A stretch of 64,000 nucleotides of DNA, taken from the NCBI RefSeq assembly GCF_024502345.1, contig NZ_JALDNN010000001.1; one strand, given 5' to 3'. Shown here piece after piece: positions 6,218-6,746 of the stretch. Each line of letters opens with the position of its first letter. Position 1 is the stretch's first letter. This DNA is from Escherichia coli (GTDB taxonomy: Bacteria > Pseudomonadota > Gammaproteobacteria > Enterobacterales > Enterobacteriaceae). The position numbers and the translations under genes were made by a program. The notes under the pieces were generated by a model that did no database searches, was not told the DNA's origin, and saw only the letters and a program-made list of their open reading frames with translations.

Positions 6218-6257
6218 AAAACCCCCGAACTGGTAAGGAACGGGGGTTTTACTTTTT
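6218..6257. terminator. Bidirectional rho-independent terminator between acpS and the shoB/ohsC locus
   Basis: aaaacccccg (6218-6227) ... cggggtttt (6241-6250) stem followed by T-run on + strand; also reads as a hairpin plus U-rich tail on - strand. Confidence 0.6.
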
Positions 6258-6330
6258 AACTTTAATTTTGTGCAGCATGCACCCTCAACAACAGCGATTA
6301 TGGATCAGTGTGCTTATCTTTTACAAGCAA
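6251..6330 (-). ncRNA. ohsC: Candidate OhsC-like antisense small RNA (boundaries approximate)
   Basis: Minus-strand transcript here would contain the complement of the 19-nt repeat at 6270-6288 and hence pair with copy 6518-6536 in the shoB leader; position matches known divergent ohsC/shoB arrangement; promoter not confidently identified. Confidence 0.3.
6270..6288. repeat. 19-nt direct repeat copy 1 (gtgcagcatgcaccctcaa)
   Basis: Identical 19-mer recurs at 6518-6536; flanking 4 nt also match with 1 mismatch. Confidence 0.85.
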
Positions 6331-6517
6331 CTTGCAATCTTTAGCATAAAAACTCGAGCCTTTACGAAGAAAGCAATATTGATGGAAAGATTTACGTGAC
6401 CGCCAATTCGTAAGTACATTAAAATTGGCTTCGTTATTGAAGATTTTGCTGTGCTTTACACCATGCCACAGAATTCCCCCATTGAAACGAGTGGTGTCGT
6501 CAAAGCTCTGGTGTGGA

Positions 6518-6536
6518 GTGCAGCATGCACCCTCAA
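6518..6536. repeat. 19-nt direct repeat copy 2 (gtgcagcatgcaccctcaa) in shoB 5' leader
   Basis: Exact match to 6270-6288. Confidence 0.85.
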
Positions 6537-6611
6537 TAACTCGCACGTTCAGTTTTGGGGAGATGTAAGGGCTAATCTGAACGGCTGCATTCCTTGTTTA
6601 AGGAAAAACGA

Positions 6612-6692
6612 ATGACTGATTGCCGATACCTTATTAAACGGGTCATCAAAATCATCATTGCTGTTTTACAGCTGATCCTTCTGTTCTTGTAA
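6612..6692 (+). CDS. shoB: Small toxic membrane peptide ShoB (26 aa), type I toxin
   Basis: ATG 6612 with AAGGA 8 nt upstream; translation MTDCRYLIKRVIKIIIAVLQLILLFL, stop TAA 6690-6692; below ORF-track size cut-off. Confidence 0.85.
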   Translation: MTDCRYLIKRVIKIIIAVLQLILLFL

Positions 6693-6709
6693 CACCAGGA
6701 AACGTACTT

Positions 6710-6746
6710 AAGGCGCGTCCGGTGAACCAGCCTGGCGCGCCTTTAA
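6710..6746 (+). terminator. Hairpin terminator downstream of shoB
   Basis: aaggcgcg (6710-6717) / cgcgcctt (6736-6743) stem followed by ttaataatt. Confidence 0.4.

Follow-up and report, generated by a model that had tools for sequence, protein, structure and literature searches.

The intergenic region between acpS and yfhL in a 64,000-nt stretch of Escherichia coli DNA (the window) contains a 26-residue open reading frame and two copies of a 19-nt block, and raises the question of whether these elements form a type I toxin-antitoxin locus and how one copy of the block would act on the other. The locus can be identified with high confidence as shoB/ohsC, a chromosomal type I toxin-antitoxin module of E. 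coli, here with the K-12 pairing allele. The shoB/ohsC pair and its 19-nt pairing logic are already known and are not new; the addition of the present analysis, drawn from sequence comparison, is that both 19-nt copies change together across Escherichia.

The K-12 annotation was transferred by gapless alignment, which places ohsC (b4608, encoding the antitoxin sRNA OhsC of 77-79 nt) at 6211-6289 on the minus strand and shoB (b4687) at 6612-6692 on the plus strand; transcript ends are those of the K-12 annotation and secondary literature. Both genes fall on the features that an earlier note had predicted from the letters alone. The minus-strand OhsC-like RNA that it had proposed for 6270-6288 is encoded there, since the K-12 ohsC gene covers this whole repeat copy, as does the match to the Rfam family ohsC_RNA (RF02495), which scores 106.8 bits (gathering score 50), lies at 6213-6289 on the minus strand and takes in all 77 model positions. 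The gene to the left of ohsC is acpS (5811-6191, plus strand) and the one to the right of shoB is the yfhL ferredoxin ORF (minus strand, end at 6887), and the order acpS-ohsC-shoB-yfhL is common to 5,425 of 5,426 complete E. coli genomes, K-12 included. K-12 MG1655 (b4687/b4608; RF02495; Fozo et al. 2008) has the same locus, gene order and ShoB peptide. Both 19-nt copies, the hexamers of both promoters, the Shine-Dalgarno (SD) sequence and all spacings are also identical; the shoB ATG, for instance, lies 323 nt from the 5' end of OhsC in each. Over 611 aligned bases the two sequences are 97.5% identical; of the 15 substitutions, none is in the pairing blocks and two, both synonymous, are in the shoB coding sequence. 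The AT-rich spacer past the shoB terminator (~6750-6890) has at most ~80% identity to any complete E. coli genome.

The promoters of ohsC and shoB are divergent, of the sigma-70 type, and separated by ~95 nt. The ohsC promoter (6297-6326, minus strand) consists of a -35 hexamer TTGTAA (6326-6321), an 18-nt spacer and a -10 hexamer CATAAT (6302-6297), and the ohsC start at 6289 lies 7 nt downstream of the latter. The shoB promoter (6396-6425, plus strand) has the -35 hexamer GTGACC (6396-6401), likewise an 18-nt spacer, and the -10 hexamer TAAAAT (6420-6425). For both genes, the hexamers found by a blind promoter scan are equal to those in Table 2 of PMC11264685. Because of the position of its -10 hexamer, shoB should start near 6432, and the leader therefore takes in 6518-6536, as the earlier note had supposed. 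The distance from the ohsC 5' end (6289) to the shoB start (~6432) is ~140 nt, and the genes do not overlap. A G+C-rich, nearly palindromic hairpin at 6209-6259 is the terminator for acpS on the plus strand and for ohsC on the minus strand. Its inverted repeat (I1) has 19-nt arms that are 95% complementary, and it corresponds to the 3' stem-loop in both the Rfam ohsC model and the minimum free energy (MFE) fold of OhsC; the palindrome at the acpS/ohsC terminator was also noted in PMC11264685. A weak plus-strand match to RF02495 (37.9 bits) arises because of this near-palindrome.

The shoB coding sequence (ATG at 6612, TAA at 6690-6692) encodes 26 residues and a stop (MTDCRYLIKRVIKIIIAVLQLILLFL). 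As the earlier note had described, it is preceded by an AAGGA-type SD sequence, here AAGGAA (6600-6605), 6 nt upstream of the ATG; this ribosome binding site (RBS) is 100% conserved in E. coli (PMC11264685). This small, hydrophobic peptide is a membrane toxin with the same sequence as K-12 ShoB, and E. coli RefSeq records name the ORF "type I toxin-antitoxin system toxin ShoB". A scan of ShoB against NCBIfam gave no family at E ≤ 0.01, the peptide being too short or named by another rule, and its membership consequently rests on identity to K-12 ShoB. The shoB mRNA would extend from 6432, placed from the -10 position, to ~6750, placed from the terminator. The resulting length of ~319 nt agrees with the ~320-nt full-length transcript reported in PMC5668327 (citing Fozo 2008), which also describes a processed form of ~280 nt and translation from the processed form only. 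The mRNA has a fold z-score of -3.55. Its terminator hairpin (6705-6748, plus strand) was identified from an inverted repeat (I3) and the predicted fold, and the stem pair 6714-6739 covaries among 43 haplotypes (U-G 22, C-G 12, U-A 9; none broken). Overproduction of ShoB in K-12 is toxic through membrane depolarisation, and OhsC relieves this toxicity, according to PMC5668327 and PMC8309996 (citing Fozo 2008). The ShoB and pairing blocks used in the published K-12 toxicity and rescue work are identical to those of the window.

The direct repeat reported in the earlier note, GTGCAGCATGCACCCTCAA, is exact at 6270-6288 and 6518-6536; allowing one mismatch lengthens it to 23 nt. The window contains no other match even when up to 3 mismatches are permitted; shuffled sequences give an expectation of 0.04. 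The copy at 6270-6288 (minus strand) is the antisense element and corresponds to nucleotides 2-20 of OhsC (5'-UUGAGGGUGCAUGCUGCAC-3'). The copy at 6518-6536 (plus strand) spans mRNA positions ~+87 to +105, ends 75 nt short of the AUG and is the predicted OhsC target. The 19 nt of antisense complementarity that had been deduced from the repeat correspond to a predicted OhsC/leader duplex (RNAduplex) of 20 bp and -41.4 kcal/mol, which includes a terminal G1.U pair to 6537, and PMC3919570 already states that 19 nt at the 5' end of OhsC are complementary to the shoB 5' UTR. In MG1655, RNase III cleaves in vivo within the putative shoB/OhsC duplex region (PMC6212723).

Short repeats and small ORFs can arise by chance, and nothing more speaks for viewing the locus as a functionless duplication remnant next to a chance small ORF. 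Against this view, none of 100 shuffles gave two or more matches to the repeat or equalled the exact 19-nt repetition, and the two copies evolve in concert. Moreover, the locus is present in all but one of the 5,426 genomes, corresponds to an Rfam family and to curated K-12 genes, and has toxicity and rescue already published (PMC5668327, PMC8309996). The remnant explanation was rejected as scarcely credible, and the locus is treated below as the shoB/ohsC module.

The pairing block occurs in E. coli as two main alleles: ~68% are allele A, the type of the window and of K-12, and ~31% are allele B, the type of O157:H7 and others. The architecture, the terminator and the ShoB protein family of allele B loci, such as that of O157:H7, are as in the window. 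In allele B, the ohsC copy of the block is GTGCAGCACACGATTCCAA and the leader copy is GTGCAGCACTCGATTCCAA. Each copy differs from allele A at 7 of 19 positions, with six changes alike in both copies, and the first 8 nt of the block (GTGCAGCA) are the same as in the window. Outside the block, alleles A and B differ at 9 of 300 positions of the shoB transcript and at 1 of 59 positions of the OhsC body. The allele B duplex contains one internal U.U mismatch (9 + 9 bp), and a perfect 19-mer is therefore not required. Minor variants of allele A all retain pairing, as G.U or G-C. The predicted energy of cross-allele duplexes is no better than -21.5 to -23.0 kcal/mol, which leaves them ~12-20 kcal/mol less stable than cognate pairs.

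Among 88 sampled loci, 55 were A/A, 33 were B/B and none was mixed. Across the 5,426 genomes, where each copy was counted separately and the tallies are totals per copy, allele A was found in 3711 ohsC copies and 3693 leader copies, and allele B in 1696 and 1690, respectively. The table of A/A and B/B loci was considered as sufficient proof of selection and rejected, since linkage over 250 bp alone gives co-occurrence. The argument for selection or conversion is made instead because the same substitutions are found in both copies while the transcript around them is nearly unchanged. Joint replacement likely came about either through gene conversion from one direct repeat to the other or through selection for compensation. 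A search of genome contigs with the ohsC terminator pattern yielded only seven loci and none from E. fergusonii or E. marmotae. Of these seven, the E. albertii contig is cut off short of the ohsC 5' block and the E. whittamii locus short of the leader copy, and a 231-bp piece in a Terasakiella assembly is E. coli-like contamination.

The small palindrome that had been noticed within the repeat (GTGCA-GCA-TGCAC) is real, but belongs to this allele only. Both the predicted OhsC fold and the Rfam consensus structure show it as a 5-bp hairpin. As a conserved structure it was rejected: the hairpin is present in alleles A1 and A2, and the corresponding hairpin of allele B differs and is weaker. Because the OhsC 5' hairpin of the window's allele is lost in allele B, comparison of the alleles suggests that the palindrome is probably not essential to the design.

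In both MFE and centroid folds of the shoB mRNA, the 5'-proximal segment (6432-6463, plus strand) is predicted to occlude the OhsC target, with 6432-6440 paired to 6533-6541 and 6447-6463 paired to 6509-6525. The pair 6440-6533 covaries among the 43 haplotypes (A-U 17, G-C 14, G-U 12; none broken), in support of such occlusion. Judging from PMC5668327, this segment would be absent from the ~280-nt processed form. Additionally, a predicted hairpin UUCCUU/GUUU/AAGGAA (6590-6605, plus strand) sequesters the SD sequence, whose predicted unpaired probability is 0.24 in the full-length mRNA and 0.62-0.75 in 5'-truncated forms. Overall accessibility of the target was rejected as the cause of the dependence on processing, the mean unpaired probability of the 19-mer being 0.34 in the full-length and 0.33-0.36 in the truncated forms; only the pairing partner and the exposure of the 3' half of the target change between these folds.

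In the mechanism proposed here, the full-length mRNA would be inert in translation, with its first ~30 nt paired to the target region and the SD sequence held in the UUCCUU/AAGGAA hairpin. Processing of the 5' end to ~280 nt would free the target region, which may then make the mRNA accessible to ribosomes, by serving as a standby platform or by capturing the anti-SD strand. OhsC would make first contact through its single-stranded 5' tail, which would seed on the 3' half left exposed in the target, and the duplex would then zip up. Such pairing would remove the activating element, so that translation stays off, and would create a substrate for RNase III. The steps after pairing are weaker than the identity of the locus, against which no observation speaks, as they draw on predicted folds and on analogy with tisB/istR-1 and zorO/orzO.

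The tisB/istR-1 system resembles shoB/ohsC in its divergent, non-overlapping antitoxin, whose 5' end pairs far upstream of a structured RBS, and in having an inactive primary transcript and an active 5'-processed one (PMC4147584, PMC7708055). It differs in its LexA/SOS control, its upstream ORF tisA and the lack of sequence similarity. Furthermore, the standby site and the pseudoknot of tisB were mapped by experiment, whereas the shoB counterparts are only putative. The zorO/orzO system of O157:H7 is also divergent and has a long 5' UTR and an active processed form; the first 18 nt of OrzO pair with the zorO 5' UTR, and the pairing region varies among copies, which limits cross-talk (PMC3919570, PMC5397157, PMC11264685). 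An OrzO-OhsC chimera is functional, indicating that the OhsC body is a generic scaffold (same sources). In contrast to shoB, zorO encodes a different toxin of 29 residues and is often found in tandem copies, and experiments put its pairing requirement at 15 nt without interruption, or at 17 nt if one is mismatched.

How OhsC pairing would lower ShoB synthesis can be viewed in several ways. As in tisB/IstR-1, OhsC could compete for a standby site by occupying a single-stranded platform at ~6518-6540, without refolding of the SD region. This view has been proposed by analogy in reviews (PMC4147584, PMC5668327) and is consistent with the structured RBS far downstream of the target, the divergent antitoxin, activity only in the processed mRNA, and a 3' half of the target that is predicted to be ~50-80% unpaired in truncated forms. 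In the same predicted truncated folds, however, the anti-SD strand (6585-6594) takes up the 5' half of the target, which is paired rather than single-stranded, and standby competition is considered a real possibility that falls short of being probable. Destruction of the mRNA, in which RNase III would cut the 20-bp duplex and decay rather than a translation block would lower ShoB synthesis, is unlikely. For tisB/IstR-1 and zorO/OrzO, RNase III cleavage follows pairing and repression is not known to need it, which counts against destruction here. A cut at least 75 nt upstream of the AUG would also spare the ORF and the RBS, and ShoB/OhsC is classed in reviews among the systems that "inhibit protein synthesis" (PMC4147584); on the other side stands the in vivo RNase III site in the putative duplex region (PMC6212723).

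In a refolding mechanism of the anti-anti-SD type, the processed mRNA would pair GGAGUGCAGC (6515-6524) with GCUGCAUUCC (6585-6594), keeping the anti-SD strand off the SD sequence, and OhsC would displace this helix so that the UUCCUU/AAGGAA hairpin re-forms. The gain in predicted SD exposure on truncation (0.24 to 0.62-0.75) is accompanied by the same partner switch in both MFE and ensemble calculations, and mutually exclusive leader structures are known in DinQ and zorO (PMC5066626, PMC5397157). All alleles share the same 5' half of the block (GTGCAGCA) and vary in the 3' half, a pattern that fits an extra constraint on the 5' half. The model is purely predictive, however; both strands of the helix are invariant in the sample, and covariation is hence uninformative, and MFE folds of 280 nt give unreliable long-range helices. 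Refolding is accordingly rated as somewhat unlikely. Under it, GTGCAGCA would be held constant by a second role in which its partner is the 5' end while the mRNA is inert and the anti-SD strand once the mRNA is active. The combined proposal, that the block is a bi-allelic specificity module whose copies are replaced together, whose 5' half is fixed by refolding, and on which OhsC acts by re-forming the SD hairpin, is put forward tentatively and regarded as doubtful.

The earlier note had also pointed to a second locus of the same design ~47 kb away in the window. This locus exists, spans 53665-54142 and is timP(ryfA)/timR, which is also known. In it, ryfA/timP lies at 53665-53969 (minus strand), and a direct repeat of 17 nt has its copies at 53887-53903 and 54047-54063. 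Like shoB/ohsC, timP/timR is divergent, and its repeat sets the 5' end of the sRNA antisense to the leader of the toxin mRNA (PMC7667032). Unlike shoB, timP encodes a Sec-dependent small protein, of 38 residues in Salmonella. A duplicated timR module is present in K-12 and absent from the window. Between the window and K-12, the timP/timR pairing block displays the same allele-wise co-variation as that of shoB/ohsC.

For the window itself, re-identification of a curated K-12 pair matters little. The main value is that of a positive control, in that a reading of the raw sequence recovers the design of a divergent type I toxin-antitoxin locus, namely a small hydrophobic ORF and a direct repeat split between its leader and a divergent sRNA. 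The population result is of modest specialist interest. A 2024 survey had left open the base-pairing check for shoB-ohsC, which is provided here by two alleles that co-vary, a sample free of recombinants and the orthogonality predicted for the two alleles. On the predicted duplex energies, the two alleles would represent two largely orthogonal toxin-antitoxin pairs.

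The locus at 6200–6750 is shoB/ohsC, an identification that stands on four lines: the Rfam match, the K-12 annotation, the distribution among genomes and the promoters. The shoB open reading frame in the window sequence (product MTDCRYLIKRVIKIIIAVLQLILLFL) runs on the plus strand from ATG 6612 to TAA 6692, with an AAGGAA Shine-Dalgarno (SD) motif at 6600–6605, 6 nt 5' of the ATG; both are present as the earlier note had described. The ohsC gene was placed at 6211–6289 on the minus strand by gapless alignment to the K-12 annotation, and the Rfam covariance model for OhsC matches with 106.8 bits (gathering score 50), with all 77 model positions covered. 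The gene order in K-12 MG1655 (yfhL, shoB (b4687), ohsC (b4608), acpS) is that of the window, and the K-12 shoB coding sequence aligns without gaps to 6612–6692 (+), such that the comparison of coordinates proposed in the earlier note puts both genes on the features it had marked. The ShoB proteins of K-12 and the window are identical, as are both copies of the repeat. The region is found in 5,425 of 5,426 complete E. coli genomes, is chromosomal in every case, and is annotated there as 'type I toxin-antitoxin system toxin ShoB'.

A repeat search returned two exact copies of a 19-nt direct repeat (GTGCAGCATGCACCCTCAA) at 6270–6288 and 6518–6536, which extends to 23 nt if one mismatch is tolerated. 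With both strands searched and up to three mismatches allowed, the 64-kb window holds no further match (shuffle control: mean 0.04 matches; two matches in 0/100 shuffles). A blind promoter scan of 6150–6900 gave three sites, two of which are the shoB promoter (GTGACC-18-TAAAAT, 6396–6425, plus strand) and the ohsC promoter (TTGTAA-18-CATAAT, 6326–6297, minus strand), both hexamer pairs being those published (PMC11264685, Table 2). The end of the ohsC -10 element lies 7 nt from 6289, where Rfam and K-12 alike put the 5' end, and the position of the shoB -10 element places the transcription start at ~6432. The distance from this start to the terminator hairpin (6705–6748, plus strand) is ~319 nt, in agreement with the ~320-nt full-length transcript (PMC5668327). 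From these transcript ends, the 6270–6288 copy corresponds to OhsC nt 2–20, and the 6518–6536 copy falls within the shoB leader at ~+87 to +105, 75 nt 5' of the AUG. Neither outcome that the earlier note held would speak against its reading, an OhsC lying off 6270–6288 or a shoB leader lacking 6518–6536, was found; its observation is confirmed and its interpretation supported.

The locus is already known: the K-12 genes are curated, the RNA has an Rfam family, and a pairing model has been published. PMC3919570, citing Fozo et al. 2008, describes the divergent layout and gives the OhsC 5' end as complementary to the shoB 5' UTR over 19 nt; the same design is set out in PMC2887945 and PMC4147584. 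Excess ShoB depolarises the membrane, and OhsC abolishes this toxicity (PMC8309996, PMC5668327). Two shoB transcripts have been reported, a full-length form of ~320 nt and a 5'-processed form of ~280 nt, with translation only from the latter (PMC5668327). In MG1655, cleavage by RNase III was detected in vivo at a site within the putative shoB/OhsC duplex region (PMC6212723). Validation of the pairing potential was described as not yet possible (PMC11264685).

The analysis establishes what the parts are and where they lie, that OhsC and the shoB leader are complementary, and that this complementarity has been maintained. In the predicted fold of the full-length mRNA, 6432–6440 pairs with 6533–6541 and 6447–6463 with 6509–6525, and both ends of the OhsC target would therefore be buried. 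The pair 6440–6533 covaries (A-U in 17, G-C in 14 and G-U in 12 haplotypes) and is broken in none of the 43, which supports occlusion of the target. A compensatory pair is also found in the terminator stem, at 6714–6739. The SD is predicted to lie within a UUCCUU/AAGGAA hairpin in the full-length form (unpaired probability 0.24). In forms shortened by 30–50 nt, GGAGUGCAGC, which takes in the invariant 5' half of the OhsC target, is predicted to change partner to GCUGCAUUCC at 6585–6594, adjoining the anti-SD; predicted SD accessibility rises to 0.62–0.75, and the target's 3' half is predicted to be 50–80% unpaired. The mean predicted accessibility of the whole 19-mer is unchanged by truncation (0.34 versus 0.33–0.36). 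The first seven nucleotides of OhsC, which are complementary to the 3' half of the target, are single-stranded in its predicted fold. The most likely order of events would be that 5' processing renders the shoB mRNA active and exposes the seed, whereupon the OhsC 5' tail would nucleate on the exposed 3' half and zip to a 20-bp duplex. An upstream activating element, either a standby platform or an anti-anti-SD, would then be lost, such that translation would remain off, and the duplex would be cleavable by RNase III.

Co-variation of the two pairing blocks was analyzed in 7 loci from species-representative genomes (pattern: the ohsC terminator) and 85 further loci from metagenomes (pattern: an invariant leader 25-mer). 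Loci with both blocks are A/A in 55 cases, B/B in 33 and mixed in none. Allele A, seen in the window and K-12, has GTGCAGCATGCACCCTCAA in both copies; allele B, seen in O157:H7 and others, has GTGCAGCACACGATTCCAA in ohsC and GTGCAGCACTCGATTCCAA in the leader. The alleles differ at 7/19 positions in each copy, and six of the seven changes are common to both copies, the seventh leaving allele B with an internal U.U mismatch. Between one typical A and one typical B haplotype, the differences outside the blocks number 9/300 in the rest of the shoB transcript, 1/59 in the OhsC body and 28/143 in the promoter-containing intergenic region. A minus-strand, GTG-initiated 82-aa open reading frame at 6298–6546, covering this intergenic region, both promoters and the leader block, is probably spurious, since it sits where the haplotypes differ most. 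In the minor variants of allele A (ohsC T9C; leader C11T; leader T9C with C13T), the affected pair always stays G.U or G-C. RNAduplex energies for the 5' 24 nt of OhsC against a 45-nt leader segment are -41.4 (A with A) and -34.2 kcal/mol (B with B) for matched alleles, and -23.0 (A with B) and -21.5 kcal/mol (B with A) for swapped ones.

When the 5,426 complete E. coli genomes were queried with allele-specific 45–50-nt sequences, the marginal totals of the two copies matched: 3204 (A1) + 507 (A2) = 3711 for the ohsC copy and 3693 for the leader copy of allele A, and 1696 and 1690, respectively, for allele B. The window carries the common K-12-type allele. The ~67/33 split equals that published for the ohsC -35 variants TTGTAA/TTGTAC (PMC11264685), so these variants mark the same pair of haplotypes. 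Every non-coli Escherichia representative with a readable ohsC 5' block (the E. whittamii representative and strains E1V33, MOD1-EC7003, SCPM-O-B-8794 and E69) has A-type blocks; we therefore infer that within E. coli it is allele B that is derived or introgressed.

The palindrome noted earlier inside the repeat (GTGCA-GCA-TGCAC) is present. It is predicted to form a 5-bp hairpin at OhsC nt 8–20 in alleles A1 and A2, and this hairpin is also part of the Rfam consensus structure. Allele B lacks the palindrome and is predicted to form a shifted, weaker 4-bp stem instead. The palindrome is not a conserved element of the design.

The second locus of like design that the earlier note placed 47 kb away proved to be timP(ryfA)/timR, a type I-like toxin-antitoxin locus at 53665–54142, and the note's remark is correct. 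The ryfA gene lies at 53665–53969 on the minus strand (RF00126, 314 bits), and an exact 17-nt direct repeat, CGCTGAGACGCGCTTGC, occurs in its 5' region (53887–53903) and at the 5' end of a plus-strand TimR-like RNA (54047–54063). The current K-12 annotation has timP within ryfA and timR divergent from it, the arrangement described for Salmonella (PMC7667032). Unlike the window, K-12 has a second, duplicated timR module (~320 nt extra). Its ryfA block differs from that of the window and matches the distal, annotated K-12 timR rather than the proximal copy, so allele-wise co-variation is seen at timP/timR too.

The AT-rich spacer between the shoB and yfhL terminators (6750–6890) is hypervariable: megablast with 6690–6900 found any match in only 19 of the 5,426 genomes, the best full-length match being ~80% identical. 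The genes that flank the spacer are ~99% identical. The rnc-era-recO-pdxJ-acpS stretch (3000–6200) has a best identity of 98.9%, with at least 99% in 0/5,426. The source falls inside the E. coli/Shigella range but is close to none of these genomes, a collection that leaves out Shigella. The rncO leader (2586–2800, 258.7 bits), GlmY sRNA (15470–15617, 147.1 bits) and iscRS stability element (46181–46290, 118.3 bits), all above their Rfam gathering scores, are known and unexceptional RNA elements of E. coli. Metagenome contig SKEH01007680.1 (1–2273) carries a shoB leader with an allele-B block in another context. Homology starts at window 6444, ~+13 of the shoB mRNA, with 92% identity; the upstream 2.1 kb is unrelated to window 5000–7999 (3 kb) and contains neither ohsC nor a shoB promoter. 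A rearranged locus, a different species or a chimeric assembly could each account for this contig. The 231-bp contig CACVCF010000286.1, labeled 'Terasakiella sp. PR1', matches the E. coli ohsC region at 98% identity; almost certainly, it is E. coli DNA contaminating an alphaproteobacterial assembly.

The co-occurrence of matching copies is explicable by linkage alone. The shared substitutions call for either gene conversion between the two repeat copies or selection on pairing, because the same changes occur in blocks 248 nt apart while the transcript is otherwise nearly unchanged; under conversion or selection alike, it is the complementarity that has been kept. As a modest addition, the co-variation analysis makes the pairing requirement directly testable by allele swaps.
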